DNA from: Spirochaetia bacterium
Lineage (GTDB): Bacteria > Spirochaetota > Spirochaetia > UBA9216
DNA: 64,000 nt
Assembly: GCA_965140585.1 (NCBI GenBank)
Contig: OZ223268.1
Location: forward strand, 133,221-197,220
Direction: 5' to 3'
Part shown: in pieces, positions 8,261 to 24,217 of the stretch
Layout: every line of letters begins with the position of its first letter
Position numbering within the stretch: the stretch's first letter is position 1
Notes under the pieces: model-generated
Told to the model about the DNA's origin: nothing
The model's input: only the letters and a program-made list of their open reading frames with translations
Databases searched by the model: none
Position numbers and translations under genes: made by a program

Positions 8261-9289
8261 ATGACGGGAAAGGATATCAATTTTATCGATGAAGAACTTC
8301 TTGAAGCTGTAGTAGCTGCAGTGACTTCAGCAGTTGAAACCAATGAACCCGGGAAGCTTGGACATGGAAAAAGGGTGGCCCAATACTGTATGATGCTGGC
8401 CGATGCAGCAAATAAGGAAAACGGGGGTGCTTTCGGGGTGATCAGCTTTTCAAAAGAAGAGATGATTGAATTGAAGTATTCGGCTCTGCTTCATGATATC
8501 GGAAAAATAAATGTAAAGCCTCAAATTCTTCAGAAAAGCAGCAGGCTTTATCCCGGTGAAGTATCTGATATCAATATCAGGTTTGAATATATACTCCGAT
8601 ACCATGAGCTTCTTCTTTCTCAGCAGAAACTGCAGCTTGCGTATAATGAAAGTTTCATAAGGAGATCGGAGCTGCTTAAAGAAATTGAGCAGGATTTTCA
8701 GCTGACGGTGAAAAATCTTAAGAAGATGATGCAGAAAATCAGGGAATTGAATAACAGCGGAATTACCCCAAACAATGCAGAAAATCTGCATGAGATTGAG
8801 TTTCTCAGAGACCATGTATTTGCCAGGGATCTTAACGGTAAAAGAATTGACCTGATTACTGATTCACAGCTTGAATCTCTGCGTGTAAAACATGGGAATC
8901 TCACTGAATCTGAGAGGCTGCAGATTCAGGAGCATGTTAATCACGGTTATGAGATACTTCGAAAGATCCCCTGGCCGAAAGCACTTAAAAACATACCTGA
9001 AATAGTAAGAAACCACCATGAAAGGGCAGATGGAAGCAGATACCCCAACAGCAGAACTGCAGAAGCCATCCCCCTTCAATCTATGATAATCGCTGTAGCA
9101 GATGTTTTCGACGCTCTTACTGCTTCTGATGTACCATACCGGAAAGGACTGGACTCTGCCGATGCAGTATCAGTCCTGCGGCAGGAGGCAGAACTGAATA
9201 ATCTCGATGCTGATGTGGTTGATCTTTTCTGCCGTAGCTGTGTTCCGGCTTATGAGAAAATTGCAGAAGGAGCAATTACTCCTCAATAA
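8261..9289 (+). CDS. HD-GYP cyclic dinucleotide phosphodiesterase
   Basis: GHGKRVA, LLHDIGK, HHERADGSRYP, IAVADVFDALTA..PYRK. Confidence 0.85.
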   Translation: MTGKDINFIDEELLEAVVAAVTSAVETNEPGKLGHGKRVAQYCMMLADAANKENGGAFGVISFSKEEMIELKYSALLHDIGKINVKPQILQKSSRLYPGEVSDINIRFEYILRYHELLLSQQKLQLAYNESFIRRSELLKEIEQDFQLTVKNLKKMMQKIRELNNSGITPNNAENLHEIEFLRDHVFARDLNGKRIDLITDSQLESLRVKHGNLTESERLQIQEHVNHGYEILRKIPWPKALKNIPEIVRNHHERADGSRYPNSRTAEAIPLQSMIIAVADVFDALTASDVPYRKGLDSADAVSVLRQEAELNNLDADVVDLFCRSCVPAYEKIAEGAITPQ

Positions 9290-10505
9290 TATCGCAGCAG
9301 AGAATATAGGGTATATTGTTTCCATCAGAAAAAGGCAGGGCTATAGTTGTACAGAGGTGTCCTGAGTTCCTTGAAATGTATTTCTTTGTAGTATATTTAT
9401 GAAGCCCGGTGCTGAAGTGAAAGAAATAACTCTTGTAGGAATGATCAAACCCGGCAGACGAGGCATGAAAGAGCCTGCTCTTCGGGGAAAAGTCATCGCT
9501 GAAAACACAGTCGCCAACCTGAATACCGTTCTCATCAAGGATGTAGACACAGTCTATAACAGTCTGCCGGTTCACGGCATTTTGCAGGTATTTGTGAAAA
9601 CCATGATTTGGCATTGCTGACAGTTCAAGTATAAACTGGGACATGACCGTATCGTATCTTGTAAAATTAAGGTGACGGTTCTTAACCATCTGGAGGGTCC
9701 TGTTCCTGAATCCCGAAGCAACCGGCACAGCATCAGCGGCCTGAAGTACTGAAAGCTCCTCTGTTTCCTGAGGATGCAGGATAAGAAAGCCCTGAAGCAG
9801 GTCGGAACCGTATTCAAGCGAAGTTACGGCTTCATCTTCAGTTTCAACACCTTCGACTATGACCACAGCTCCAACCTGATGTGAAATCGAGTTTATCGCC
9901 TGAACTATTTCTTTCTTATAGATATCATTCTCAATGTTTCTTACCAGAGCACTGTCTATTTTAATAATATCCGGCTGAAGAATTACAACCCTCTCAAGAT
10001 TTGACAGTGTTTTTCCTGCGCCTGTGAGCGCTATTAGAAATCCGGATTTTTTGAAGGCATCAATCGAGTTTTTCAGAATCTCGATGCTGTTGACATCCGA
10101 CTCCAGGATTTCAAGTATTATTGAAGCGGGGCTTAAACCGGCTTTGATTGCCATATCAGTAATTTCTTCTGCCGAGGTATCTATACTTAATATAGTAGGC
10201 TCCAGGTTTACTGCAAGAAGCAGGTCATGATCATCTTTCTGAATCCTGCTAAAGCGTCCAAAAGCTTTTCTCAGGCAAAGCCTGTCAAGATCAGCTGCAG
10301 TTGTAGTTCTCCGGCCCATATAAAAAAGCAGTTCCGGATTGACCAGTTCTCTGTCGGAAGTCAAGCCACGACTTAAAGCTTCTACTATCACGGTTCTGTT
10401 CTCTGAACCTGAGACAATAGGCTGAAAACAGGTGATGACAGATTCATTCTCTAAAATCCAGTGATAGTCTTTTTCTGTGACATTCTGTAGCACTTTATAT
10501 TCCAT
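9276..10505 (-). CDS. EAL-domain protein with C-terminal YkuI-like domain, probably catalytically degenerate
   Basis: FQPIV, VEALSRG, LEILES, IIKID, VEGVET, LLQGF; DDFG replaced by LTGAG; C-terminal DHSYKSYF...YISRNSGHLCTTI. Confidence 0.8.
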   Translation of the reverse strand: MEYKVLQNVTEKDYHWILENESVITCFQPIVSGSENRTVIVEALSRGLTSDRELVNPELLFYMGRRTTTAADLDRLCLRKAFGRFSRIQKDDHDLLLAVNLEPTILSIDTSAEEITDMAIKAGLSPASIILEILESDVNSIEILKNSIDAFKKSGFLIALTGAGKTLSNLERVVILQPDIIKIDSALVRNIENDIYKKEIVQAINSISHQVGAVVIVEGVETEDEAVTSLEYGSDLLQGFLILHPQETEELSVLQAADAVPVASGFRNRTLQMVKNRHLNFTRYDTVMSQFILELSAMPNHGFHKYLQNAVNRQTVIDCVYILDENGIQVGDCVFSDDFSPKSRLFHASSAGFDHSYKSYFFHFSTGLHKYTTKKYISRNSGHLCTTIALPFSDGNNIPYILCCDIIEE

Positions 10506-10562
10506 ATCAGTTTATTCCTGTTCTATTAATCGGCCTGGGCTCATGTAAATTATAGGAAAAAA

Positions 10563-12200
10563 CTATCTCCTATTCAAATCAAGCGCATAATTTGCCGCAT
10601 GCTCAAATGTATCAATAAAATGTATTTTTTCTGTGGTTTCAGTTATACCGCTCCGGTTAAGTTCTCCAAGTACAGATTCATTAACGCCAGAAAAAATAAC
10701 TGTAACACCTGAGTGTCTAAGAACTCTTAAAACGCCCTTTATATTCATAAGTCCTGTCATATCAATAAATGGTACATGTCTCATCCTTATAATAAGTATA
10801 TGACAGTCACAGGCAATTGAACGGATATTCTCTGCATAATGCCTGGCCAGGCCGAAGAACATCGGTCCGCTAATCTCATAGACACAGATATCTTCAGGAA
10901 GGTCGGAATAGCTGTCTATTATATCTATGTCCACCTCCGAAGGAATCTTTCCGCTCATATCAGCCATTCTGCGCATAAACAGCATGGACGCAAGAACAAC
11001 TCCGACTTCGATTGCCATTGTCAAATCAACCAGTACAGTCAGAATAAATGTTACCAGAAGTATGAGGATATCCGAAGCGGCGCCTCTGAATACTGAGACA
11101 AAAGATCTCCATTCACTCATATTATATGCTACAACAATCAAAATACCGGCAAGCGTGGACATCGGAATTAATTTGGCAAATCGACCGAGAAAAAGCATAA
11201 TCATCAACAGAGTCAGAGAATGAATGATACCTGCAATCGGAGTTCGTCCCCCGTTTTTAACGTTGGTTGCTGTACGAGCAATTGCCCCGGTTGCCGGGAT
11301 GCCGCCGAAAAACGGTGCCACGATGTTGGCAATCCCCTGCGCTATCAGTTCAGTGTTGGAACGGTGATTACCGCTTATCATTCCGTCCGAAACAACAGCC
11401 GAAAGCAGCGACTCAATGCCTCCAAGCAGTGCGATTGTTATTGCGGGTTGAATATAACGGGTCAAATCTCCGGGACTGAAATGCGGCAGAATAAAGATCA
11501 TACCTGAGGGGATTTCGCCGAAAAACGATTCAATCGTGGTCACAGGAAGCCCGAACAGCTGTACAACCAGAGTTGTGACAACAAGAGCAAATATTGACCC
11601 CGGAACCTTTGAAGTCAGCTTCTTTGACAGCAGAACGATAAGTATGGTTACAGCCGTAATTATTAGCGCATAAGGATTTATTGTGTGAAGTTCTGAAATA
11701 TACAGCTTCCATTTTCCGATAAAATCAGCCGGAACAGATGCTATATCAAGGCCGAGTGCGTCCTTGATCTGTGTGGAGAATATCACAAGTGCTATTCCGC
11801 TTGTGAATCCGATTATCAGCGGCTGGGGTATGTATTTTAAAAGTGAACCGAATTTTATCAGTCCGAAAATTACCAGAAGGATCCCGGCCATTATAGTCGA
11901 AATCATAAGTCCTTCTATTCCGTATTCCATTGCAATTCCGTTCACAATTACAATGAAAGCACCGGTCGGACCGCCTATCTGGACCCGGCTGCCGCCGAGC
12001 AGTGATATTATAAATCCTGCAATAACAGCAGTAATAATTCCTTTTTCAGGAGAAACCCCGGAAGCAACGGCAAAGGCTATCGAAAGCGGCAGTGCAACTA
12101 TTCCGACAACTATGCCGGACATTATATCCGCACTAATCTGCTGTCTGCTTATTCCCGCTTTGAGAAGTGAAAACAATTTTGGTTTGAATATTTTTTCCAT
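10563..12200 (-). CDS. SulP family anion transporter with STAS domain
   Basis: VALPLSIAFA, GGPTGAF, ESLLSAVV, GAIARTATN, STAS (GPMFFG, FIDMTG). Confidence 0.92.
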   Translation of the reverse strand: MEKIFKPKLFSLLKAGISRQQISADIMSGIVVGIVALPLSIAFAVASGVSPEKGIITAVIAGFIISLLGGSRVQIGGPTGAFIVIVNGIAMEYGIEGLMISTIMAGILLVIFGLIKFGSLLKYIPQPLIIGFTSGIALVIFSTQIKDALGLDIASVPADFIGKWKLYISELHTINPYALIITAVTILIVLLSKKLTSKVPGSIFALVVTTLVVQLFGLPVTTIESFFGEIPSGMIFILPHFSPGDLTRYIQPAITIALLGGIESLLSAVVSDGMISGNHRSNTELIAQGIANIVAPFFGGIPATGAIARTATNVKNGGRTPIAGIIHSLTLLMIMLFLGRFAKLIPMSTLAGILIVVAYNMSEWRSFVSVFRGAASDILILLVTFILTVLVDLTMAIEVGVVLASMLFMRRMADMSGKIPSEVDIDIIDSYSDLPEDICVYEISGPMFFGLARHYAENIRSIACDCHILIIRMRHVPFIDMTGLMNIKGVLRVLRHSGVTVIFSGVNESVLGELNRSGITETTEKIHFIDTFEHAANYALDLNRR

Positions 12201-12267
12201 ATATCTCAGAGGATTACCCTATCTGAGAAACAAAATCAATCAGTTAGACTGATTTTTCGTCAGAATT

Positions 12268-13398
12268 TCAACTATCCTGCGAAACTACCATATTTCTGCC
12301 GTGAGTCTTAGCATAGTACAGCCTTACATCAGCAGATTTAAGAATTCCCTGAATTGTCCCGGCTTCCGAAAAAGCTGCAATACCGAAGCTAGCAGTCAGC
12401 TGATATTTACCGCAGAATCGGTGTTCTGCTATTATAGTCTTCAGTCTCTGGGCAAGCTGCTCAGTACTGTACAGCGGAGTTTCGGGACAGATAATGAGAA
12501 ACTCCTCACCGCCCCAGCGGCCGCAGACATCGACTTCCCTGATATGAGTACTAATTAATCCGGCAAATTCTACAAGAACCTTATCGCCCGTATCATGACC
12601 GTAGCTGTCATTAACATTCTTGAATAAGTCAATATCCATCAGTATTACACTGTATTCCTTGTTATACCGGATGGTCTTTCCAGTGACTTCTTTCAGCACA
12701 TCATCAAGTTTTCTTCTATTATACATTGCTGTAAGACTATCCCGGATTGACTGCTCAACAAGAACAGCATTGACAGCTTCTATCTCTTTTTTATGATGAA
12801 AGCCTCGCACAAAACTGCGGTAATTCAGACTGATAAGAATAAAAGCGATCATTCCGTTGGAGATAACATCTGCACTGTAGCTTGATAAAATGATCTCCGG
12901 ATGATAAACAGGAAGAAGGACCAGAGCCGCAACACTTACCGCTGCGTAGCAGACTAAACTCTGAATGTAATCGAGATAGAAAATTACCGCTATACCGTAG
13001 AGGGCAGCAATATATATTGTTGGAATCCGGCCAAGTTCCACTTCAATCAGAATAAACCGGTAAAGAGCTATACCCATACCGGATAGAATGAAAAGCTGAA
13101 CAAATATCTGTTTGGCAAAGATTTTATCTCTAAGCCCGGTTTTCATAAAAAGAATACTGAAAAGAACAAAAAGAGCCATCAAGAGTGCCGAATGTATATA
13201 GACGGTCTTCATCAAAGATGGAATATTGCTCACCCTGAATGCATAAAAAAACTGTTCTACTACCAGAAATATAGAAATTATAAGAATCCGGAACACATTA
13301 TTCTCAGACTGATACTTTCTGAATTCGTGCATTTCACTGGAACTTACAGGCTTCCCGAATATTCTGATTTTAAGTTTTACAAACGTTTCCATAAACAC
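12268..13398 (-). CDS. Membrane diguanylate cyclase
   Basis: About 6 TM segments; DSLTAMYNRR, DIDLFKNVNDSYGHDTGD, RWGGEEF with RxxD I-site. Confidence 0.9.
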   Translation of the reverse strand: MFMETFVKLKIRIFGKPVSSSEMHEFRKYQSENNVFRILIISIFLVVEQFFYAFRVSNIPSLMKTVYIHSALLMALFVLFSILFMKTGLRDKIFAKQIFVQLFILSGMGIALYRFILIEVELGRIPTIYIAALYGIAVIFYLDYIQSLVCYAAVSVAALVLLPVYHPEIILSSYSADVISNGMIAFILISLNYRSFVRGFHHKKEIEAVNAVLVEQSIRDSLTAMYNRRKLDDVLKEVTGKTIRYNKEYSVILMDIDLFKNVNDSYGHDTGDKVLVEFAGLISTHIREVDVCGRWGGEEFLIICPETPLYSTEQLAQRLKTIIAEHRFCGKYQLTASFGIAAFSEAGTIQGILKSADVRLYYAKTHGRNMVVSQDS

Positions 13399-13432
13399 TG
13401 CGGCACTATACTAAATCGATTAACCCAAAACT

Positions 13433-15004
13433 TCAATCGGTAAAATAGGCGATTGCATTTTTGCCCGATTTTTTTACCCTGTACATTGCAGTATCAGCTT
13501 CATGAAGAATCTGTTCGAGATTTTCATGATTGCCGCCTTCAACAATACTGATTCCGATGCTTGCTCCAATATTTATCTCATGCCCTTCGATTATCAGTTT
13601 CTCATCAATCGCATTAAGAATTTTTTTTGTTACAACATCGCATTCTTCTTCACTGGAGACACGAGGAAGAAGTACTATAAATTCGTCACCTCCGTATCTG
13701 CCTACAGTGTCTGAACTGCGCAGAACAGCCTTCATTTTAAGACCAACAGTCTGAAGTAGTGAATCTCCTACATCATGGCCGAACTGATCATTGACACTTT
13801 TAAATCCGTCAAGATCAATGAAGCAGACAGCCATTTTTAATTTATACCGGTCAGCAAGCTCCAGCTGCTTCGTAATTCTGTCGTATATAAGATTACGGTT
13901 CGGCAAATCCGTCAAATTATCATATAGGGCGGCATGCTCCATTGATTTACGGTATTTATTCCTCTGTATTATTATCCTGGATATAAGCAGAGCCCCGACA
14001 ATATCAAGAAATAAAATAATTATTGCAAGAATGGTATACCGGTATTGAAAATCTTTGAGTCCCAGTCCGAATTCCTTAGCTGTTATATAGTTAATAAGAA
14101 ACCAGGAATTTTCTGAGTTATAAATAAAATCAAGCTCCTCATACGGGTTTATCTTTAAAGCTGAAACCAGAACCCTATTTTTATAAACCTGATAAAAATC
14201 ATTATTCTGCATATACTCCCAGACTTGAGGACATTCAATGCTGAAAGAAACGGCCTCCCGATCGGGAAACATGAAACCCCATTCTTTATCAGGGTCATCA
14301 CGATAAAGCCAGTCACCGTTTTCATTAGCCAGAAAAAAACTGCCCGGATTATTCAGGGTCAGGTTTTCAAAAATATCAATTAAATTATGCCCCAGGAAAT
14401 TCAGTACAACAGCGCCCTTCACTTCACCCTCATTATAGACAGGACTTCCTATCCGAATCATAGGCTTTAAAGGTTTTTCAATCCTTTCGTTCTCTACATT
14501 CAAATCAAACAGTGAGATGTAAACCTGGCCTTCATGAAGTTTAACCGTCTCTGAAAAATAATACCTGTTAGATTTATCCTGCATCTGTTCTTCTGAAACA
14601 AGTACAGGCTTTCCATCAACCAGATTAACACGAACAATTTCCATTCCGGTTTGATCAATATATCGAACCTGATCAAAAACTCTCTTATTTTCGCTGAAAT
14701 TAAGCAGATCCTGCTGCAGATCATTTTTGCCAAGACCTGTTTCAATCATGTTGTGCAGTGACGATAAACCTGCCAGGAATTTCACATCGTATACAAGTTC
14801 CCTATAATAATTTGAAACAATTTCAGATTGGGCCTGAAGCAATCGTTCAGAATCAAGACTTTGTGTGTTTATATGCTCTGATCTATGCGAAATGATGAAG
14901 ATCGTATACAGGCCGAAACTTAATATTATCACTGCTGAAAGTGTTTTGACTGCTATACTTCCTGACGCTAAAGCTTCTTTAAAAATCATTTTATATTTGT
15001 GCAT
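13433..15004 (-). CDS. Cache-domain sensor diguanylate cyclase
   Basis: TM-Cache (QVRYID.GMEIVRVN, QDKSNRYYF, KPMIRIG)-TM-GGDEF (RYGGDEF). Confidence 0.9.
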   Translation of the reverse strand: MHKYKMIFKEALASGSIAVKTLSAVIILSFGLYTIFIISHRSEHINTQSLDSERLLQAQSEIVSNYYRELVYDVKFLAGLSSLHNMIETGLGKNDLQQDLLNFSENKRVFDQVRYIDQTGMEIVRVNLVDGKPVLVSEEQMQDKSNRYYFSETVKLHEGQVYISLFDLNVENERIEKPLKPMIRIGSPVYNEGEVKGAVVLNFLGHNLIDIFENLTLNNPGSFFLANENGDWLYRDDPDKEWGFMFPDREAVSFSIECPQVWEYMQNNDFYQVYKNRVLVSALKINPYEELDFIYNSENSWFLINYITAKEFGLGLKDFQYRYTILAIIILFLDIVGALLISRIIIQRNKYRKSMEHAALYDNLTDLPNRNLIYDRITKQLELADRYKLKMAVCFIDLDGFKSVNDQFGHDVGDSLLQTVGLKMKAVLRSSDTVGRYGGDEFIVLLPRVSSEEECDVVTKKILNAIDEKLIIEGHEINIGASIGISIVEGGNHENLEQILHEADTAMYRVKKSGKNAIAYFTD

Positions 15005-15116: not shown

Positions 15117-16286
15117 CTAATTAAGCGACAACAGAACACCCGCAGCAATTGCAGAGCCTATAACTCCGGCTACGTTTGGTCCCATTGCGTTCATCAGCAG
15201 AAAGTTGCCCGGGTCTTCTTTCTGACCGACCTTCTGTACTACTCGTGCAGCCATAGGTACGGCAGATACTCCTGCAGCTCCAATCATCGGATTGATCTTT
15301 CCGCCGCTTATCTTGCTCATCAGCTTTCCAAGCATTACTCCGCCGCCGGTTCCTACTCCGAATGCTATACATCCAAGCACAATAATGAAGATTGTCTCAA
15401 ATGTAAGGAAGTGGTCGGCTGACATCTTCGAACCTACTGATATTCCAAGGAATATGGTAACTATGTTTATAAGCTCGTTCTGGGCTGTCTTTGAAAGCCT
15501 GTCTACAACTCCGCACTCCTTGAACAGGTTTCCAAGCATTAGCATTCCGATTAGAGGTGCTGATGCCGGAATAAGCAGGGCTGTAACTATTGTTGTGATT
15601 ATCGGGAAAAGAATCTTTGTCCGCTTTGATACGGGTTTCGGATCTTCCATCCTGATAAGTCTTTCCTTCTTGGTTGTGAGAGCCTTGATAATAGGCGGCT
15701 GTATAATCGGTACAAGCGCCATATACGTATAGGCTGCTACTGCAATAGGTCCAAGCAGATGCGGTGCAAGCTTCGATGTAAGATATATCGCTGTAGGACC
15801 GTCAGCTCCTCCGATTATTGCGATGGAAGAGGCCTCTGCGAAGTTGAAGCCCAGATCATGCGCCGCAAGAAAGGGTATTGCTCCAAGCGCCTTTGCTCCA
15901 AGCAGGGTTATAAATATACCAAGCTGTGCAGCGGCTCCAAGAAGAAAGGTCTGCGGCTTGCCCAGTAGCGGTCCAAAGTCCGTCATCGCACCAATTCCCA
16001 TGAAGATAATCGGCGGAAACAGTCCAAGCTGAACACCCTGGTAAAAATAGTATATAAGTCCGCCGGCCTGGTCTCCGATTGGGCCTTCCAGAAGCCCTGT
16101 AAGCGGAAGGTTTACCAGTATTGCTCCAAACCCTATCGGGATAAGCAGCAGCGGCTCATAACCCTTTGCTATTGCAAGGTAAACAAGCAGACAGCCGATT
16201 GCAATCATCACAATGTTCTGCCAGGTGATTGCTGTGAAGGCGGTGCTGCTTAGAAATCTCAATATTAGATCTACGAAATTCACCAA
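15117..16286 (-). CDS. mmdB: Na+-translocating decarboxylase beta subunit (OadB/MmdB family)
   Basis: [63 protein letters not shown]. Confidence 0.93.
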
Positions 16287-16295
16287 ATCCCTCCG

Positions 16296-16781
16296 TTAGC
16301 CGATGTCTACAAGCGGCTGTCCTTCGGTTACGTTTGTACCCGGAGTTACATGGATGGCTGCTACTGTACCGGCATTGCTTGCAAATACTTCAATGTCCAT
16401 CTTCATTGCTTCCATTATCAGTAGAAGATCTCCCTTGGCTACACTTGCACCCTGGGCTACCTTGATTTCCTTGATTGTTCCTGTGATTGCAGCCTTCTCA
16501 GTTCCGGCTCCGGCTGCTACAGGGGCGGCGGCTGGTGCAGGCGCGGCAGCTGCGGGAGCGGGGGCGGCAGCTGCCGGTGCTGGTGCGGCCGGTGCAGCAG
16601 CTGCAGCAGGGGCTGCAGGCGCAGCGGCCGGTGCAGCAGGAGCTGCTGTTGCTCCTGCAGGGGTTGCAAGGCTTACAAGGTAACTATCGCCTTCATGCTC
16701 AATTGTAAGGACATTTCCGTTTCTTGTTACGTTTATGTCGTAAAGTGTTCCTTCATATTCAAACTTAATATTCTTGCTCAT
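16296..16781 (-). CDS. mmdC: Biotin carboxyl carrier subunit of Na+-pumping decarboxylase
   Basis: Ala/Pro linker and EAMKM biotinylation motif. Confidence 0.9.
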   Translation of the reverse strand: MSKNIKFEYEGTLYDINVTRNGNVLTIEHEGDSYLVSLATPAGATAAPAAPAAAPAAPAAAAAPAAPAPAAAAPAPAAAAPAPAAAPVAAGAGTEKAAITGTIKEIKVAQGASVAKGDLLLIMEAMKMDIEVFASNAGTVAAIHVTPGTNVTEGQPLVDIG

Positions 16782-16786
16782 AACTC

Positions 16787-17173
16787 TTATACTCCTGGTG
16801 CTTTTCTTGTAATTTTATTGCTAGCGACCCACGGGTCATACTTTGCTGCTCCCGCTGAGCTCCATCCTGAAGCCTTCGGGGCATTCTGCTCATCTTCCTC
16901 TGCTGCCAGAAACGCTGATACCGCAGCCGAAAGCCATTTGGCGTTGTCGGCCATTGTTGCTGTAGCTGCTGCAACTATTACAGGCAGGGGCAGACCGCCG
17001 CTCTTCTTTGCTGAAGAAGCCCTGGCAGATTTCGGCGCTGTGCTTTTGGCTGTATCACCGTCTGCGAATTTCCTTATCAGAACCATCAGCAGACTCAGAA
17101 GGACTAACAGCGTAAATACTATCAGTATTCCAAGTATGGATGTCATAACACTGTAAATAAATTCTTCCTGCAT
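16787..17173 (-). CDS. mmdD: OadG/MmdD-family anchoring subunit
   Basis: Single N-terminal TM (GILIVFTLLVLL), AAVSA and C-terminal W..AG motifs, position in operon. Confidence 0.75.
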   Translation of the reverse strand: MQEEFIYSVMTSILGILIVFTLLVLLSLLMVLIRKFADGDTAKSTAPKSARASSAKKSGGLPLPVIVAAATATMADNAKWLSAAVSAFLAAEEDEQNAPKASGWSSAGAAKYDPWVASNKITRKAPGV

Positions 17174-17188
17174 AAAACTCTCCGCCTC

Positions 17189-18739
17189 CTACAGTGGTAT
17201 ATTGCCGTGTTTCTTGGCAGGTCTGTCTTCACGCTTTTTGATGTTGATCTCAAGCGCTCTGATGAGTTCTGCACGGGTGTATTCGGGATCGATTATATCG
17301 TCTACAAGACCAAGTCCTGCGGCTACGTAGGGGTTCATGAACTCTGTCTGGAACTCTGCTATCTTTTCCTGTCTCTTTGCTTCAGGATCCGATGCTGAAC
17401 TGATGTCCTTTCGAAAGATGATGTTTGCTGCACCCTCTGCTCCCATTACTGCTATTTCTGCTGTCGGGTAGGCAAGGACTCTGTCGTATCCAAGTGACTT
17501 GGAGGACATTGCTATCATTGAACCGCCGTAGGATTTTCTCATAATCAGCGAAATCTTGGGCACTGTTGCCTCTGCTATTGCGTAGAGGATCTTTGCTCCG
17601 TGCCTGATGATTCCACCGTGCTCCTGGGCAACGCCTGGAAGGTAGCCGGGAACGTCAACGAGTGTGATTACCGGAATATTGAAAGCATCGCAGAAGCGAA
17701 TGAATCTTGCTCCCTTGTCTGATGAGTTGATATCAAGTGATGCAGCCATGAACTTCGGCTGGTTGGCAAAGATTCCTACAGTGCGTCCGTTTAGCTTTGC
17801 GAAACCTACTACTACGCTTTTGGCGAAGTCTTCCTGTACTTCAAGAAATGAACCTGCGTCGAAGGCGCTTCCGATTATATCGCGTACATCGTAGGGCTTT
17901 CTGGGCTCTTCGGGGATGATCGACATTATTTCGGGGGTGGTTCTCTCAAGTGAATCTGTACATGCGCTTACTGGCGGCTGCTCTGTGTTATTTGACGGCA
18001 GGTAGTCCATAAGCCTTCTGATGAAATCAAAACATTCCTGCTCGGATGAAAAACGGAAGTGGGCGACTCCGCTTTTTGCACAGTGAGCTGATGCTCCACC
18101 GAGGTCTTCGTGGCTGATAACCTCACCGGTTACTGTCTTGATTACATCCGGACCGGTGATGTACATGTGACTTGAACCGTCTACCATGAATATGAAGTCG
18201 GTTATGGCCGGTGAGTAAACTGCACCTCCGGCACAGGGACCGAGTATTACTGAAAACTGAGGAATTACACCTGATGAGAGTGTGTTGTTCCGAAAGATTT
18301 TGGCGTATCCGTTTAGTGAGAGTATTCCCTCCTGGATTCTTGCTCCGCCTGAATCGTTGACCTGGATAAACGGTGAGCCGTTTTTGAGTGCAAGACTTTG
18401 GGCCTCTGCAATCTTTTCGGCATGCATTTCTCCAAGTGAACCGCCGAGAACTGTAAAATCCTGAGCTGACAGGAATACCTGCTTGCCGTTCATCTTGCCT
18501 GTTCCGGTTACTACTCCGTCGCCGGCAAACTTGTTTTTATCCATTCCGAACTGGCTTGTTCTTGTCTGGATGTATGCCTGGCTTTCAACGAAACTTCCCT
18601 CATCCAGAAGTCCGGTGATCCTTTCTCTGGCGGTAAATTTCCCTTTATCATGCTGGGCTTTGATTCTGGCGTCGCCGCCGCCCTTCTGCATTTTTGCTCT
18701 GAAGTCTTTAAACTCCTGAAGCCGCTCGTTGTTATTCAT
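17189..18739 (-). CDS. mmdA: Acyl-CoA carboxyltransferase, (methyl)malonyl-CoA decarboxylase alpha subunit
   Basis: GDGVVTG, QDFTVLGGSLG, DSGGARIQEG, GPCAGGAVYSPA, DVPGYLPG, KKHGNIPL. Confidence 0.88.
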   Translation of the reverse strand: MNNNERLQEFKDFRAKMQKGGGDARIKAQHDKGKFTARERITGLLDEGSFVESQAYIQTRTSQFGMDKNKFAGDGVVTGTGKMNGKQVFLSAQDFTVLGGSLGEMHAEKIAEAQSLALKNGSPFIQVNDSGGARIQEGILSLNGYAKIFRNNTLSSGVIPQFSVILGPCAGGAVYSPAITDFIFMVDGSSHMYITGPDVIKTVTGEVISHEDLGGASAHCAKSGVAHFRFSSEQECFDFIRRLMDYLPSNNTEQPPVSACTDSLERTTPEIMSIIPEEPRKPYDVRDIIGSAFDAGSFLEVQEDFAKSVVVGFAKLNGRTVGIFANQPKFMAASLDINSSDKGARFIRFCDAFNIPVITLVDVPGYLPGVAQEHGGIIRHGAKILYAIAEATVPKISLIMRKSYGGSMIAMSSKSLGYDRVLAYPTAEIAVMGAEGAANIIFRKDISSASDPEAKRQEKIAEFQTEFMNPYVAAGLGLVDDIIDPEYTRAELIRALEINIKKREDRPAKKHGNIPL

Positions 18740-18856: not shown

Positions 18857-19618
18857 CTAGAAAATGGCGTTAACTATCAGATATCCTACTGAAGGACAAA
18901 GAAGTGTTCCAAGTCCTGTATAGAAAGTTGCAGTCATTGCACCGTAGGGAACAAGCTTGATATCAGTAGCCGCAAGTCCGCCTGCAACACCACTGGTTGT
19001 TCCGATAATTCCGCCGTATACCATTGCTGTAGTCGGGTTATCAAGACCGATCTTCTTGGCAATAAGCGGGGTCATGATCATCGTCAGTACAGACTTAACA
19101 ACACCTGCCGCAACAGACAGGGCTACAACCGACGAGCTTACGCCTAGGGCATCACCTGTTACCGGTCCTACAATAAAAGTAACTGTACCTGCACCGATTG
19201 TTGTTAGTTCTTTGGGGTCAACAAAACCCAGTATACGGGCAATTATAACTCCGACAACGAATGAAAAAATAACACCGATGAAAAGAGCTACAACACCTGC
19301 AAGCCCTGCTTTCTTGAGATTCTCCATCTTAACACCATATGCTGTTGATACAATGGTGTAGTCTCTGAGGGCACTTCCTCCAAGTATGAGAAAACCTGCA
19401 AAAAGAGGCAGATCAGCAAGACCTTTTTTTCCGCCGGTGAATTTACCAGCAACATATGCAAGAATAAGGGCAAGTATGATTGCAAAAGCAGATCCCATCT
19501 TTCCCTGTTTGATCATTTTTGCTACATAGTAAGCAAGAAGCATCGCAAGAGCGACAAAACCGAAAGCGAGGACAAGGTGATCACGTCCCATGATACTGTT
19601 CATTATTTTTGCAATCAT
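18857..19618 (-). CDS. madM: Malonate transporter subunit MadM
   Basis: GSAFAI, TGGKKGLAD, GGSALRDYTIVST, GAGTVTFIVGPVTG, GTTSGVAGGLAATD.KLVPYGAMTATFYTGLG. Confidence 0.92.
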   Translation of the reverse strand: MIAKIMNSIMGRDHLVLAFGFVALAMLLAYYVAKMIKQGKMGSAFAIILALILAYVAGKFTGGKKGLADLPLFAGFLILGGSALRDYTIVSTAYGVKMENLKKAGLAGVVALFIGVIFSFVVGVIIARILGFVDPKELTTIGAGTVTFIVGPVTGDALGVSSSVVALSVAAGVVKSVLTMIMTPLIAKKIGLDNPTTAMVYGGIIGTTSGVAGGLAATDIKLVPYGAMTATFYTGLGTLLCPSVGYLIVNAIF

Positions 19619-19992
19619 ACTTCTTCTCCTTTATCTTTACCAAGCTTGGCTACTAATGGTACAAGAAACAGTGAAGCTATAGTTGCAATGCCTCCGGCCA
19701 GAAATGCAACCGCACCGCCGTCAACTGCAGCTACAACATTCTGGGATGCTGCCATAGCAACAACAACCGGAATGTAGATAGAACTCAGAAAAAGTATTCC
19801 GTTTTCAGTTTTTGCACTGAAACCGCCCTTTTTTGATTTTTGAACTCTTGCAGTAACAATAACCAGAAGAAGCATTGCTATACCTACACCGCCGACATTA
19901 CCCCCGATGCCGATTACCGCACCAAGAATTCTGCCGATGAAATTTCCGACAAAGTAACAGGCTGCTACTATTCCAAGGCCGTATATTTCCAT
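19615..19992 (-). CDS. madL: Malonate transporter subunit MadL
   Basis: MEIYG, NVGGVGIAMLLL, YIPVVVAMAASQNVVAA; overlaps madM start. Confidence 0.92.
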   Translation of the reverse strand: MEIYGLGIVAACYFVGNFIGRILGAVIGIGGNVGGVGIAMLLLVIVTARVQKSKKGGFSAKTENGILFLSSIYIPVVVAMAASQNVVAAVDGGAVAFLAGGIATIASLFLVPLVAKLGKDKGEEV

Positions 19993-20031: not shown

Positions 20032-21255
20032 TTATTTTTTGTCGAAGACAACTCCGCTGTTCAGCAGTTCTTCAACTTTTTCTTTTGAATATCCGAGTTC
20101 ATTCTGCAGATATTCAATTGTGTGCTCCCCAAGTCCGGGAGCCGGTGTTCTGACTGTACCGGGAGTTTCCGTCATTTTAAACGGAGATCCGGCCATAGTT
20201 ACTTTACCAACTCCGGGCTGTTCAACATCAACTATCATTTCGCGGTAAAGCAGGTTCGGGTCTTTTACAACCTTATCAATTGTGTTCAATGGTGAATACG
20301 GCAGGCCGTTTTCATCAAGAAGCTTGATCCATTCTTCGGATGTCTTCTTTTTCATTTCAACATCCAGAATTCTGACCAGTTCATCTCGGTTCTGTGTTCT
20401 GAGAGGATTAGTTTTGAAAAGTTCATGATCAGTCAGATCTTCTCTTTCAATAAGTGTACAGAATTTCTTCCAGAGAGAATCATTACCGATAGGTGTTATA
20501 ACCCAGCTGCCGTCACTTGTTTCAAATGCCTGAAACGGAGTTATGGTCGGGTGAGCACTTCCGAGAGGTACGGGAATTTCACCTTTGGCAGTGTATCTGA
20601 CAATTGCATTCTCAAGAATGTACACGAGACCATCTACCATAGAAATATCTATATGCTGTCCTTCGCCGGTTCGGTTTTTATGCTGCAGAGCTGCAAGAAT
20701 GCCGATCGCACCCTGATGTCCTGCAACTACATCACCTACAGACGAGCCTACGCGTACCGGAGCTCCGCCGAGGGGGCCTGTGATACTCATCAAACCGCTG
20801 AATCCCTGTGCAACCATGTCGTATGCCGGACGGGTTGCATACTCGGGAAGAGCATCATGTCCGAATCCGCAGATTGAGCAATAAATAATTCCGGGATTTA
20901 TTTTTTTTAATTCTTCATATGAGAAACCAAGTTTTCTCATGGTTGTCGGACGGTAGTTTTCAACTACGATATCCGCATCCTTAATCATGTCTGTCAGTAG
21001 AGCCTTACCTTCATCTTTTTTAAGGTCAACACAAATACTCTTTTTATTTCTGTTGATACTGATGAAATATCCGCTCTGCTTTCCGTTGCCGTCCTGTTCA
21101 TCAAGGAAGGGTCCGAATGCCCTTGAATCATCACCAATAGGGGGTTCAACTTTTACAACTTCAGCCCCCATATCTGCCAGAATCATCGTGCAGAACGGTG
21201 CAGCAAGTACATGACTAAGATCGACTATTTTAATTCCTTCCAATGCCTTTTTCAT
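20032..21255 (-). CDS. Family III (CaiB/BaiF) CoA-transferase, candidate malonate CoA-transferase
   Basis: DLSHVLAAPFC, NRNKKS, VENYRP, SVGD catalytic Asp, APGLGEHT; first gene upstream of madLM. Confidence 0.9.
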   Translation of the reverse strand: MKKALEGIKIVDLSHVLAAPFCTMILADMGAEVVKVEPPIGDDSRAFGPFLDEQDGNGKQSGYFISINRNKKSICVDLKKDEGKALLTDMIKDADIVVENYRPTTMRKLGFSYEELKKINPGIIYCSICGFGHDALPEYATRPAYDMVAQGFSGLMSITGPLGGAPVRVGSSVGDVVAGHQGAIGILAALQHKNRTGEGQHIDISMVDGLVYILENAIVRYTAKGEIPVPLGSAHPTITPFQAFETSDGSWVITPIGNDSLWKKFCTLIEREDLTDHELFKTNPLRTQNRDELVRILDVEMKKKTSEEWIKLLDENGLPYSPLNTIDKVVKDPNLLYREMIVDVEQPGVGKVTMAGSPFKMTETPGTVRTPAPGLGEHTIEYLQNELGYSKEKVEELLNSGVVFDKK

Positions 21256-21376
21256 AAAGGCCTCCTGTGATTTTTGTTTTCACAAAATCACTTGATCACT
21301 AATAAATTGAATTAAACACACTCTTTCACAATGTTATTTTCTTGATACCTCCAGGGGCTCTCTTTTCTTTATGAGC

Positions 21377-21411
21377 AAAAAAAAAGAGAAGTATTCTGAC
21401 ACTACTTCTCT
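21377..21411 (-). terminator. Leader intrinsic terminator between hutP and the CoA-transferase (attenuator)
   Basis: Sense AGAGAAGTA-GTGTCAGAA-TACTTCTCT followed by 8 more T; two UAG triplets overlap its 5' arm. Confidence 0.8.
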
Positions 21412-21480
21412 AATACACGCGTTAATAAAATTTCACTACAGGGACTGAACACTAATACACACTAAATTTTTTCAGTCCTG
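21402..21480 (-). promoter_or_regulatory. Putative HutP-binding RNA element (UAG repeats plus upstream hairpin)
   Basis: Five UAG at 21462, 21452, 21436, 21410, 21402 (four as UAGUG); repeated GUGUAUUAG; hairpin CAGGACTGAA/TTCAGTCCCTG with two UAG in its loop. Confidence 0.6.
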
Positions 21481-21498
21481 TTTATACACAAATAAAAA

Positions 21499-21921
21499 TT
21501 ATTTTAAATGCATAACCCCAAGCGCACACCGCTCATGGTTTGTTATTGGATAGAAGGCGGAATCACCGTAAATCGCAACGGCAACCCATTCCTCATTTGT
21601 TACAATGCCCACCTTAAGTTTCAGGCTGGCCTCTGCCGGAACACTGCTGATAACACCGTTAAGCGCTTCAAGAGCAGCATGAAGAACAGCATGAACCTGC
21701 GTTCCGTTTTTTTTGATCAATCCATTCTGAAGCGAACAACCGACGATTGATTTTACAAAACTCTTCTTGATATCGGAGGTCAGACCGGTAATAAAAGTCA
21801 CCGCAAGTTTTTCCTTTCCGATAGTGTTATTGACTTCAGCCTTAATCTGGCGCTCTTCTTCTTCATCAGACATAGCAGCAAGAAGTGCCATTTTTCCAAT
21901 ACGATCTGTATTCAGCTTCAT
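21499..21921 (-). CDS. hutP: HutP-family RNA-binding antiterminator
   Basis: RIGKMALL, HAVLHAALEALNGV, EWVAVAIYG, HERCALGVMHL parallel B. subtilis HutP (RIGRLSVL, HALYHATMEALHGV, DWIAVSLYG, HETFGVGINHI); three metal-binding His kept. Confidence 0.88.
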   Translation of the reverse strand: MKLNTDRIGKMALLAAMSDEEEERQIKAEVNNTIGKEKLAVTFITGLTSDIKKSFVKSIVGCSLQNGLIKKNGTQVHAVLHAALEALNGVISSVPAEASLKLKVGIVTNEEWVAVAIYGDSAFYPITNHERCALGVMHLK

Positions 21922-21929
21922 GTTTAGTC

Positions 21930-21959
21930 ATACTACACTCGGAAATGCACAATTGTCAA
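21930..21959 (-). promoter_or_regulatory. Sigma-70-type promoter of hutP, probably leaderless transcript
   Basis: TTGACA-18 bp-TAGTAT, then 8 nt to ATG; no SD. Confidence 0.55.
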
Positions 21960-22027
21960 TAAAAAAACTAAAGCTATCGGGATTTTTTTATCTATATATT
22001 CTGGTTTAAATTGTTGATTTTAACTTT

Positions 22028-24217
22028 TCAGGGTTGAAATCGACCTGGAATCCTAATACGAAAAACAGTCCCCTGCCCCGGTTCCGAATCGACTGCAATA
22101 TATCCATCGAGTGTATCAATAATATTTTTCACAATTGCAAGACCAAGCCCCATTCCGCGATGTATTTTAGTATAAATATTTTCAAGTTGCTGGAAAGGCT
22201 GAAAAATAAGCGGAAGATCCTCCTTCTTAATTCCGGGCCCTTCATCCGCTATTTCAAGAATCAGCTCATCAGCCGATTCTATTATGCTGCAGGTAATCTT
22301 TCCATTCTCTGAATATTTTATTGCATTTGTAATAAGGTTGTTTACTATCTGAGCAATACGGGTTTCATCACCGTAGAAAAAACCTGATTTATATTTTTTG
22401 CAAGCCGACAGGTGAAGATCCTTTTTTTCCAGAGAATCACTGAATATTTCAGAAGCAAGCATACCGATATTATTCAGTTTGAAAACCTGTTTACTGATAG
22501 AAATTTTACCAATGCTGAACTGGGTAAAATTCAAAAGATCCTCAATTATTGTTTTTAGATTATCGGTAGAAACAAGGGCAAGATTGTACCACTCTTGTTC
22601 TTCTGTATTAAAAGAAACTCCTGCCAGAAGCCTTAGCATGCCGTAGACTCCGTTAAGCGGAGTCCGCAGTTCATGACTGATATTTGCAAGAAAATCATTT
22701 TTTACCCGAAGTGCTGTTTCAGCCTTGATTCTTGCGTGTTCTATCTGTTCTGAAATTTTGATTTTTTCAGTTACATCATGTATGATTGCATAAAGATATT
22801 CATGGCTGCCGGCATTCAGACGCCCGCTGAATAACTCTATATGCCGGGTATCTCTTTTTGCAAGCTTGATCCTCATTGTTTTGCCTGATAATTCATCAAA
22901 CTTAAAAAAACCTTCTTCAATATTTTCTTCATCGGCAAGCAGATTGTAAAGTGAGAGATTTTTCAGTGCATTTTCAGGATAACCAAGATAATCCACAGCA
23001 GCCTGATTCAAATCAATTATTCTGCTTGTAACCGGTTCGAATAAAATAATGACTGATGTGTTATCATAAAAAAGGCTTCTGTATTTTAATTCACTTAAAC
23101 GAAGTGCAGATTCAGCCTTTTTCCTGATATTAATATTTATAAGTGAAAACAGAAGTAAAACTGCCATTATACTGAAAATGCTCACCGAACTCAGCACCAG
23201 AGCCTTATTTTCCCTGAGAAAACTGTATGGTCTGTTGATGATTTCAGAATCTTCCGGAAGCTTCCTCAAACTGATTCCAAAGCGTTTCAGTTCCTGATAA
23301 TCAAATATGTAGTGATTATCAGCATCACTCCGGATAGGAATTGAAGCCGGAGATGCACCATCAAGTATTTTTAGAGCAGTTTCTGCGGCACTGATTGCCT
23401 GCTCATAGTGACTAATCACCCTTCCTCCGAAAACACCATCACCGAAACCGTGATACCATAGATGAAAAAGCGGTATTTTAAGATTCTCATAAATTATCTT
23501 CAAACTCTCATTAAAAAGAAGATTATTTCCTTCACTGTCCTGATAGGCAGAAAGCAGAAGTAAACTAGTATCCCGTCCTAAACCGGAGAGAATTGCTGCA
23601 AATTCCTGCCATGTATAATCTTTAAGAGATATTGTTCTGAACTCATATGAAGGAAATTGGTTTTGAAGCTCATTAAAAGCCCTTAAATCAGCAGCTCCGC
23701 TGGTTGTTGCATCGGAAATGGCCGTAATTGTTTCAGTCTGGGGAAAAAGAGAAATCATCAATTCTATAGTATCTTTCATCGATACGGCTTCAATCAGCCC
23801 TGTTACCATCGGGTCATTATTATAACTCAGAGCTTTCTTAATATCATTGACCCCGAAAAAAACTATCGGAACATCGTTAAAAAACTCATTCCGCATACTC
23901 ATACATAAATCAAGCGCATTATCATCTGCAGTTATTACCAAATCATATTCAGGAACATGCTGAAACTTGTAGATAAAAAATTCCCTTCTAAGCTTTATTA
24001 CCTCATCAGTATTAAACCGTTTTGAATCCAGAAATTCCATATCCAGAAGAACATGTTCTTCATCAAGCACTGAACGCAATCCGTCAATCTGATGATTGAA
24101 AGTCGGAAACGAAGGGTTATATGAGCTGATAAATAAAATTCTTTTAAAATGATCATGTGTATAGGCAGGTAGACCAGTAACCAGCATAATCAGAATCAGG
24201 ACACACTTACGGAACAT
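22028..24217 (-). CDS. Sensor histidine kinase (ABC substrate-binding-like periplasmic domain, PAS, HisKA, HATPase)
   Basis: ISSYNP...EFLDSKRF, FLANISHELRTPL, NLITNAIKY, DEGPGI, GMGLGL. Confidence 0.9.
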   Translation of the reverse strand: MFRKCVLILIMLVTGLPAYTHDHFKRILFISSYNPSFPTFNHQIDGLRSVLDEEHVLLDMEFLDSKRFNTDEVIKLRREFFIYKFQHVPEYDLVITADDNALDLCMSMRNEFFNDVPIVFFGVNDIKKALSYNNDPMVTGLIEAVSMKDTIELMISLFPQTETITAISDATTSGAADLRAFNELQNQFPSYEFRTISLKDYTWQEFAAILSGLGRDTSLLLLSAYQDSEGNNLLFNESLKIIYENLKIPLFHLWYHGFGDGVFGGRVISHYEQAISAAETALKILDGASPASIPIRSDADNHYIFDYQELKRFGISLRKLPEDSEIINRPYSFLRENKALVLSSVSIFSIMAVLLLFSLININIRKKAESALRLSELKYRSLFYDNTSVIILFEPVTSRIIDLNQAAVDYLGYPENALKNLSLYNLLADEENIEEGFFKFDELSGKTMRIKLAKRDTRHIELFSGRLNAGSHEYLYAIIHDVTEKIKISEQIEHARIKAETALRVKNDFLANISHELRTPLNGVYGMLRLLAGVSFNTEEQEWYNLALVSTDNLKTIIEDLLNFTQFSIGKISISKQVFKLNNIGMLASEIFSDSLEKKDLHLSACKKYKSGFFYGDETRIAQIVNNLITNAIKYSENGKITCSIIESADELILEIADEGPGIKKEDLPLIFQPFQQLENIYTKIHRGMGLGLAIVKNIIDTLDGYIAVDSEPGQGTVFRIRIPGRFQP

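Follow-up and report, generated by a model that had tools for sequence, protein, structure and literature searches.

Malonate decarboxylase and malonyl-CoA pathway operons are known to be controlled, in response to malonate, by the DNA-binding regulators MdcR (LysR type), MdcY, and MatR (both GntR type). Among the proteins that act on leader RNA, TRAP promotes termination when it binds. HutP of Bacillus subtilis is the closest described counterpart of the protein treated here; its published repeat is UAG-N4, i.e. a spacing of 7 nucleotides (nt) (PMC2425495, accessible part), and variable spacers of 2–4 nt have been described for Bacillus HutP sites (PMC12591593, accessible part). The latter source, a 2025 review of RNA-binding antiterminators, presents HutP in its accessible part only for Bacillus hut operons. 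The accessible part of a review of malonate metabolism (PMC8085960) mentions no HutP-like regulator for Malonomonas rubra, Sporomusa malonica, or Rhodobacter capsulatus. In the present study, a hutP-like gene and the leader that separates it from a malonate operon were analyzed in a 64,000-nt stretch of a Spirochaetia bacterium genome (GenBank assembly GCA_965140585.1, contig OZ223268.1, positions 133,221 to 197,220 of the forward strand). This whole stretch is called “the window”; coordinates are those of the window, and all features of the system lie on its minus strand.

An initial annotation, made from the letters alone, had reported a promoter, hutP, a 243-nt leader, and catabolic genes in that order, and all of these were recovered. 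The hutP open reading frame (ORF; 140 amino acids, 21499–21921) belongs to a non-hut clade of the family, the leader occupies 21256–21498, and the operon from the CoA-transferase gene to the gene for the beta subunit of a Na+ pump spans 21255–15117. We consider it probable that the locus encodes a HutP-type RNA-binding antitermination switch, built on a sister clade of the histidine HutPs, that controls the malonate operon, the effector most likely being malonate together with a divalent metal.

The hutP product was matched to PF09021 (E 3.1e-31; 108.7 bits against a gathering cut-off of 25), with profile positions 1–128 of 128 covered. Its AF2 model had a predicted local distance difference test score (pLDDT) of 89.8 and a predicted template-modeling score (pTM) of 0.85. 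When folds in the PDB were matched, the top eight hits were all HutP chains (TM 0.60–0.74, 23–29% identity), and the next matches had E ≥ 0.019. Identity to B. subtilis HutP is ca. 25% (E 3e-5). The NCBIfam equivalog model for HutP (NF002838) was not satisfied, the score being 40.6 bits against a cut-off of 155.

Residues were tabulated over the aligned relatives, omitting the S. malonica paralogue L051 (loci are numbered with the prefix L), which sits on a very long branch. Three histidines, H77, H81, and H129, are invariant in 30/30 malonate-linked, 25/25 hut-linked, and 8/8 other rows. They align to B. subtilis His73, His77, and His138 (B. subtilis numbers were counted along the alignment), which we take to be the divalent-metal ligands. 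Window positions 73, 74, 80, 92, and 98 align to B. subtilis Tyr69, Arg70, Tyr76, Arg88, and Arg98, to which we ascribe a role in L-histidine binding. They are Tyr, Arg, Tyr, Arg, and Arg in 25/25 hut-linked rows; the 30 malonate-linked rows have P/S/G, T/G/Q, L/I/V, V/H/S, and A/S/T there, respectively. The clade also has an invariant set of its own (E23, K27, T42, G46, K103, S121, P125, T127, N128, R131, and M137, each 30/30). The plain reading of these alignments is that the HutP scaffold and metal site have been kept with a different ligand pocket. By analogy with the Bacillus protein, a homohexamer with two RNA-binding faces would be expected.

A maximum-likelihood tree was calculated from 65 rows, leaving out two duplicates (L004 and L053) and two loci in which the hutP frame is broken (L042 and L043). 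The 25 hutH-linked rows, comprising the Bacillales sample (in which hutH adjoins hutP at 23/24 HutP loci) and the hutH-linked paralogue of S. malonica, are grouped on one side of a long branch (support 99/89). On the other side (support 97/94) are 39 rows, of which 30 are malonate-linked, five AllH-linked, three linked to V-type ATPase genes, and one other. L051, the remaining row, is placed at the midpoint root. As far as these sequences go, the clade of the window protein is sister to the hutH-linked HutPs. Given this placement and its equivalog score (40.6 vs 155 bits), the window protein is not an orthologue of the histidine HutP; the reading in the initial annotation of a co-opted HutP-type system stands with respect to family and layout, with this correction. 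S. malonica (genome G042) holds three HutP paralogues. One (L051, 2926–3417) follows a sodium:solute symporter gene and is very divergent (branch length 6.6–7.8), one (L052, 9462–9914) stands directly after a histidase-like lyase, and one (L034, 5929–6387) precedes a CoA-transferase gene.

Forty related loci were recruited by the single peptide pattern SA[FI][YH]P[ILM]TNH; their ORFs were called and clustered, and cluster representatives were annotated with Pfam. Malonate-related genes were found at 31/40 loci, 20/40 having malonate-specific markers (MadLM or MadA). At 14/40, an orthologue of the window CoA-transferase (47–99% identity) lies directly 3′ of hutP. It is followed by madLM in L004, L005, and L009, and in L006 the start of madL is met at the contig end. 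Another 17/40 loci are at Malonomonas-type malonate decarboxylase clusters, which depend on biotin and on an acyl carrier protein (ACP); these hold MadA, ACP, two carboxyltransferase subunits, MdcG, CitG, a beta subunit, and biotin ligase. MadA (PF16957) was seen in 16/17; at L036, a MadB-like beta-subunit gene is all that is visible of the cluster up to the end of the contig. The adjacency of hutP to madLM on which the initial annotation had laid weight therefore held in a wider form, in that linkage to malonate genes is kept at 31/40 loci and for two pathways, whereas madLM itself was found at only four loci. In the tree, the mad-type and CoA-transferase-type contexts are interleaved within both large non-hut subclades.

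Carriers of the clade were found in Spirochaetota, Thermodesulfobacteriota, Caldisericota, Bacillota (Negativicutes, Clostridia, and Bacillales), and Pseudomonadota (five Rhodobacter species). Sporomusa malonica and Rhodobacter capsulatus are among them, with the CoA-transferase gene or a mad-type cluster. Both organisms are reportedly named in the title of a 1994 article by Dehning and Schink on anaerobic malonate degradation. Within the lineage of the window hutP is rare: 2/40 closest genomes have it, as does 1/400 in a sample drawn from the whole phylum. HutP and MadM coincide in the 41 closest genomes (G000 included), both being present in the same three and in no other. The only Spirochaetota genome of the phylum sample with hutP has two tandem copies, each followed by AGUG-N4-AGUG by a terminator-like hairpin. 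No match to histidase (PF00221; hutH) or urocanase (PF01175; hutU) was found anywhere in the 98.5%-complete genome from which the window comes, which extends to the genome what had been noticed for the window.

In comparison with a congeneric genome (L004), the proteins from HutP through the gamma-like subunit are 96–99.6% identical, and the sensor kinase encoded just upstream is 85% identical. This difference between the malonate genes and the adjoining kinase suggests that the malonate island was recently exchanged between the two species or replaced. The hutP frame is split in two beside a mad cluster in Tepidibacillus marianensis (L042, 5944–6398; G043:C1:156725-157113) and in a Clostridia metagenome-assembled genome (L043, 2730–2962), which may reflect decay of the regulator or assembly error.

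The leader of the window was folded, and its motifs were counted against 2000 dinucleotide shuffles of the same leader. An intrinsic terminator lies at 21411–21377, as had been predicted; it has a 9-bp stem (21411–21385), a 9-nt loop, and nine U (21385–21377), and its fold (-10.3 kcal/mol) was equalled by 5/200 shuffles. A consensus terminator scan returned zero sites. This result was discounted as evidence of absence, given the folded hairpin at 21411–21385; the scanner allows loops of 3–8 nt and therefore missed one of 9 nt. The candidate main binding site (21418–21396) consists of GUGUAUUAG followed by the NAG cluster UAG (21412)-N5-UAG (21404)-N3-CAG (21398). Both UAGs overlap the 5′ arm of the terminator, in agreement with the initial annotation, and the CAG is in the terminator loop. 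Farther upstream, leader hairpin 1 (21481–21438; -13.2 kcal/mol, z -4.6) was matched by 0/200 shuffles. Its loop contains UAGUG at 21464 and 21454, and a third UAGUG starts at 21438, the 3′ end of the hairpin; this is the arrangement of two UAGs in a loop and a third after it that had been pointed out before. The loop is a possible upstream binding site and, speculatively, a counterpart (UAG-N7-UAG-N4-CAG) of Bacillus site I. Large-loop hairpins with GUGU-rich loops were seen by eye in L006 and L008.

The two repeats singled out by the initial annotation both exceeded the shuffles: UAGUG was present five times (0.56 expected; 0/2000 shuffles) and GUGUAUUAG twice (0.0 expected; 0/2000 shuffles). 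AGUG was found seven times (2.39 expected; 6/2000 shuffles). There are 14 copies of GTGTATTAG in the genome, and two of them are 42 nt apart in this leader. When the genome was scanned for AGTG in segments of 243 nt, the leader was one of only three with seven, the maximum found. Of the seven other listed clusters (six or seven AGTG), three are identical copies, presumably in 23S rRNA (recognised by eye, with no tool), and the rest fall within long open frames in sense or antisense orientation.

A second conserved block (21301–21261) is composed of UAGUG (21301)-N-AAGUG (21293), a 9-bp hairpin (21291–21267) that is present in the minimum-free-energy fold, and the Shine-Dalgarno sequence AGGAGG (21266–21261). 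The block is conserved in four lineages (window, L005, L006, and L009). Its pair of AGs at 8 nt is found in L004, L005, and L009, and also in L006 as judged by eye from the alignment. The block might serve as a second protein–RNA site, as a translational element, or as a DNA operator. A scan of 20900–22300 with Rfam at E ≤ 10 gave three matches, all at chance level (snoRNA, miRNA, and NRON), and no known riboswitch or leader family. The fold of the whole leader (z -1.5) was equalled by 14/200 shuffles, and thus gave no evidence for one global structure. No alternative pairing of the terminator's 5′ arm that could act as an antiterminator was found by eye.

For comparison of leaders across the relatives, L004 (99% identical) stood for the window in the terminator, k-mer, and spacing analyses. 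A terminator-like hairpin and U-run were found shortly after hutP in 22/27 leaders lying wholly between genes. The window, L005, L006, and L009 encode HutP proteins that are 57–74% identical to that of the window, and their leaders align only in two islands (mean column identity over the four-lineage alignment, A2, 64%). The first island is the 5′ flank of the terminator, (G)UGUAuUAGaGAAgUAGUGU, in which TAGTG is invariant, and the second is the block before the ribosome-binding site. In 13 Bacillota leaders, the 5′ arm of the terminator reads GAG-N5-GAG-N5-GAG (gAGUGaauGAGGGACAGAG). There, the arm GAGGGACAGAG is conserved in sequence and the proximal stem keeps its pairing; the distal stem varies yet stays paired, with compensatory changes in 4/10 consensus pairs.

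Distances between AGs were compared with those in dinucleotide shuffles in which the number of AGs was fixed. Near-duplicates (L011, L026, L034, and L040), loci with gaps of 4–29 nt (L019–L024 and L028), and the GC-rich Rhodobacter leaders (L014–L018) were left out of the k-mer and spacing statistics. Over the remaining 24 non-redundant leaders, many of them nonetheless related, the 8-nt distance was observed 53 times and expected 24.8 times (nominal z 6.1). The excess recurred in the spirochaete-like group (20 vs 7.9, z 4.2) and in the Bacillota CoA-transferase group (14 vs 4.6, z 4.2), which have no evident mutual sequence similarity; nine Bacillota mad-type leaders peak at 6–7 nt instead (z 2.6 and 3.2). 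As a positive control, 21 canonical hutP–hutH leaders gave 7 nt (42 vs 16.9, z 6.6) and 14 nt (z 3.9). A pair of AGs at 8 nt was present between -18 and +14, counted from the stem start, in 13/19 HutP-clade terminators and a triple in 9/19. Among 706 terminator-like hairpins of the window's own genome, the pair was present in 67 (9.5%) and the triple in five, although this control was built with a perfect-stem finder that recognises only 8/24 leaders, such that the two terminator sets come from different finders. AGUG occurred 52 times over the 24 leaders (19 expected). The top 5- and 6-mers (GGAGCG, GACAGA, and GGGACA) were set aside, as they mostly reflect the relatedness of the Bacillota leaders.

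These features are consistent with the following sequence of events. A sigma-70-like promoter-like site, TTGACA-18-(TG)TAGTAT (21959–21930; 10/12 consensus matches), would drive hutP. Because the end of its -10 box is 8 nt from the hutP ATG and a Shine-Dalgarno sequence is absent, the hutP mRNA may be leaderless. Without inducer, transcription would stop at the terminator at 21411–21377. With inducer, the protein, as a hexamer carrying a divalent metal on its His triad (by analogy with Bacillus), would bind the 8-nt-spaced NAG/UAGUG repeats at 21412–21396, and perhaps the upstream hairpin loop as well. Binding would hold the 5′ arm single-stranded; the terminator could not form, and RNA polymerase would read into the operon. 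Malonate itself is the most likely effector, since the clade precedes two unrelated malonate pathways that have only malonate in common. It is favored over a pathway intermediate because both large subclades contain mad-type and CoA-transferase-type contexts in alternation. In L005 and L006 (each at about 5960–6003), TTGACA-17/18-TGTGTAnnAT-N8-start also precedes hutP, as judged by eye from the alignment.

A number of results weigh against this proposal. At the window terminator, only two NAGs are in the 8-nt register, the third (CAG) being at +6, and L005 lacks a third NAG at its terminator. Plain UAG is not enriched in the leader (6 observed vs 5.18 expected; 814/2000 shuffles reach 6), and, as a correction to the initial annotation, the repeated unit is UAGUG or NAG in an 8-nt register. 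Across the relatives, 6/19 terminators have no 8-nt pair, and the only Rhodobacter leader tested has a strong terminator with just one AG. The finder detected no terminator-like hairpin in 5/27 leaders (L007, L013, L030, L031, and L041), one of which (L030) has by eye a hairpin with an interrupted U-run; the hutP–madA gap of L028 is only 29 nt. The z-scores and binomial p-values are overstated because many leaders are related, and the 40 loci are a biased sample of the family because they were recruited by one peptide pattern. Nine of the 40 are not at malonate genes (V-type ATPase, three; AllH/FdrA-like/AllG, five; PriA, one), and because these share the clade-invariant residues, such residues alone do not specify malonate. 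In 10 loci, the CoA-transferase orthologue is the sole malonate link, and in Sporomusa it lies among microcompartment and c-di-GMP genes. Surface positions that are invariant in the hut-type proteins also differ (window L60, G61, L64, and N128 vs E, T, K, and E), and for that reason RNA binding is inferred and not assured. Finally, the palindrome-like part of the second block (21291–21267) could be a DNA operator for another regulator.

The same antitermination might answer to another signal, such as malonyl-CoA, acetyl-CoA, some other small dicarboxylate like methylmalonate or succinate, or a metal or an ion connected with energy conservation by Na+. V-type ATPase operons (L010–L012) and AllH/FdrA-like/AllG clusters (L019–L023) stand behind hutP genes of the clade that encode the same invariant residues, L013 pairs the CoA-transferase with a BKACE enzyme and an MFS carrier in place of madLM, and the regulated unit in Sporomusa seems to be the CoA-transferase gene alone. 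S. malonica is, moreover, reported to grow on malonate or succinate (PMC8085960, accessible part). However, malonate but no CoA-ester intermediate is common to the ACP-based mad pathway and the CoA-transferase pathway, the two alternate in each subclade, and both MadL and MadM exceed the malonate equivalog cut-offs; another signal is accordingly regarded as unlikely. A histidine-responsive HutP that was moved unchanged before a malonate operon would account for the family membership and the retained His triad, and is very improbable. The ligand-site residues invariant in 25/25 hut-type proteins are replaced, the protein falls in a separate clade on a long branch and far below the equivalog cut-off, and the genome has no hut pathway; S. 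malonica even has a hutH-linked paralogue separate from, and in addition to, its CoA-transferase-linked one.

The terminator might instead merely insulate hutP, with the operon having its own promoter and being controlled by another regulator at the block that precedes the ribosome-binding site; in that case, the HutP-like protein would serve some other function or affect translation or stability at the block. That block, with its inverted repeat (GTGATTTTG..CAAAAATCAC), is kept in four lineages, hutP is immediately preceded by a sensor kinase gene, weak promoter matches (8/12) occur in L005 and L009 downstream of their terminators, and the leader of L009 holds an 11/12 match, though upstream of its terminator. 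Yet no minus-strand sigma-70-like site of ≥ 9/12 was found between the window terminator and the start codon, nor any of ≥ 8/12 in the same interval of L004 or L006. The block ends 12 nt before the ATG and so leaves no room for a promoter downstream of it, and it contains a UAGUG/AAGUG pair at 8 nt, as expected for a second protein–RNA site. Insulation would also leave unexplained why terminator 5′ arms are conserved in sequence across phyla, and we hold it to be quite improbable. The least credible account is that of a chance juxtaposition in which the motifs and hairpins have no regulatory meaning. It would fit the UAG count and the AU-rich terminator stem of modest stability, but it is at odds with the excess of UAGUG, AGUG, and GUGUAUUAG over shuffles, with the conservation of gene order, terminator position, and 8-nt register across phyla, and with flanking genes and leaders that are too diverged for recent common ancestry without selection. 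The spacing method, in addition, recovers the 7-nt distance in canonical hut leaders. An antitermination switch that responds to malonate is therefore retained as the preferred explanation of the locus.

The operon begins with a family III CoA-transferase gene (20032–21255; profile match). It is followed by the genes for the Na+/malonate symporter subunits, madL (19615–19992; TIGR00807, 127.4 vs a cut-off of 113.45) and madM (18857–19618; TIGR00808, 307.8 vs 236.3), which were also identified with Pfam and which both exceed the NCBIfam malonate-transporter equivalog cut-offs. Next are genes for an MmdA-like carboxyltransferase (17189–18739), a gamma-like subunit (16787–17173), a biotin carrier (16296–16781), and the Na+-pump beta subunit (15117–16286; TIGR01109, 520.9 vs 190.6). 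The CoA-transferase is under every NCBIfam equivalog cut-off, the best being succinyl-CoA:mesaconate (355 vs 700) and succinate-glutarate (343 vs 750), and the carboxyltransferase is below that for mmdA (781.7 vs 998.8). Because of these scores, the pathway can only be inferred from the gene set: malonate would be taken up by MadLM, receive CoA from what would be a malonate CoA-transferase, and, as malonyl-CoA, be decarboxylated by the Na+-pumping complex.

Upstream of hutP, the histidine kinase gene (22028–24217) encodes an ABC-transporter substrate-binding-like domain (PF04392) and PAS; no response regulator was seen between it and hutP. Just downstream of the operon (8261–15004) is a run of c-di-GMP genes, i.e. 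two GGDEF (one with a Cache-type sensor), an EAL, and an HD-domain gene (PF13487, HD_5), which is interrupted by a SulP/STAS transporter gene. In Sporomusa, a GGDEF-EAL gene stands after that for the CoA-transferase. The Caldisericota locus L009 has an amidase-signature gene (9365–10786) inside its CoA-transferase–madLM–carboxyltransferase cluster, and its product might, speculatively, be a malonamidase that feeds in malonate.

Further arrangements were noted among the loci at other genes. In Bacteroidaceae/Segatella (L010, 118–5437; L012, 6001–11369; L011, 2966–3834), a gene of the HutP clade is followed by a leader and a V-type ATPase operon. These leaders are 105–117 nt long and AG-rich, with a terminator-like hairpin; L011 breaks off at the contig end. 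The Spirochaetota locus L007 holds V-type ATPase genes, two tandem hutP copies, and mad genes together. After its second hutP (6931–7316) are several copies of a module of ca. 55 nt (..UUAGUGUAUAAGUGUUUCUCACC..ACGACUUUGUGUACUAGUGUG..), interrupted by a masked run of N. At L019–L023 (Caldisericota and unclassified; e.g. L019, 5971–9881, and L021, 5971–11106), hutP is 5–14 nt 5′ of AllH/FdrA-like/cyclase/AllG genes, which are of the oxamate carbamoyltransferase type, FdrA-like being a CoA-ligase-domain protein. With no leader after hutP, any RNA target at these loci must lie elsewhere.

A broader view can be offered only tentatively, and as a whole it is rather doubtful. The HutP fold might be a general sensor in which a metal links the protein to a small acid, and not one confined to histidine. 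The sister clade would read malonate chelated on the His3–metal site through an 8-nt NAGUG register, and side branches (oxamate-carbamoyltransferase-type and V-type ATPase) would read other chelating acids or signals. As the ancestral regulator of Na+-pumping malonate decarboxylation, the clade would have travelled together with the genes of the pathway through at least five phyla, and the second site at the ribosome-binding region would add translational control.

If the proposed switch is real, HutP is no longer a one-regulon system and becomes a family of ligand-switched antiterminators, and the missing regulator of malonate fermentation genes in anaerobes has a name. With repeats of 7 and 8 nt, the family would offer a natural experiment on the dependence of repeat spacing on subunit geometry. 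The switch could also serve as a compact synthetic-biology part responsive to malonate or another dicarboxylate. The proposal is testable in R. capsulatus and S. malonica, carriers that are in culture and non-pathogenic. With only 68 clusters at 50% identity matched (E ≤ 0.001) among 1.84 billion representatives, the family is small enough for a full survey of its contexts. The view of the initial annotation that such a switch had not been described was borne out by a full-text search of the open-access literature, in which no description was found that ties HutP-like proteins to malonate or to any non-hut regulon.

With B. subtilis HutP (PDB 1wmq, 1vea, and 3BOY; PMC2425495; PMC12591593), the window protein shares the Pfam family, the fold, and the His triad, and the locus shares the order of regulator gene, terminator, and catabolic genes, with clustered NAGs overlapping the 5′ side of the terminator. 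It differs from that system in the low identity (ca. 25%), the sister-clade position, and the replacement in the window clade of ligand-site residues that are invariant in hut proteins; in its malonate regulon, in a genome without hut genes; and in hosts that include Gram-negative phyla. The register differs as well, being 8 nt (NAG-N5, often NAGUG) in the window clade and 7 nt (UAG-N4) in canonical hut leaders. TRAP of Bacillus, too, is a ring of subunits that is activated by a ligand and recognises spaced (G/U)AG triplets in a leader (compared in the accessible part of PMC2425495), but its fold is unrelated, and the binding proposed here would prevent termination, as for HutP. None of MdcR, MdcY, and MatR is encoded beside the window operon, and control is proposed to be exerted on RNA at the terminator. 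The M. rubra mad cluster (PMC8085960, accessible part) has in common with the window the MadLM symporter, a biotin carrier, and a Na+-pumping beta subunit, whereas the window has a family III CoA-transferase and an MmdA-like carboxyltransferase, not the ACP-based MadA/E/C/D. The malonyl-CoA route of S. malonica and R. capsulatus is the other close counterpart of the pathway, and both organisms carry this HutP clade. Judged from these comparisons, the fold and the regulatory logic are known ones, and what would be new here is the class of effector, the regulon, the shifted RNA register, and the wide phyletic spread.

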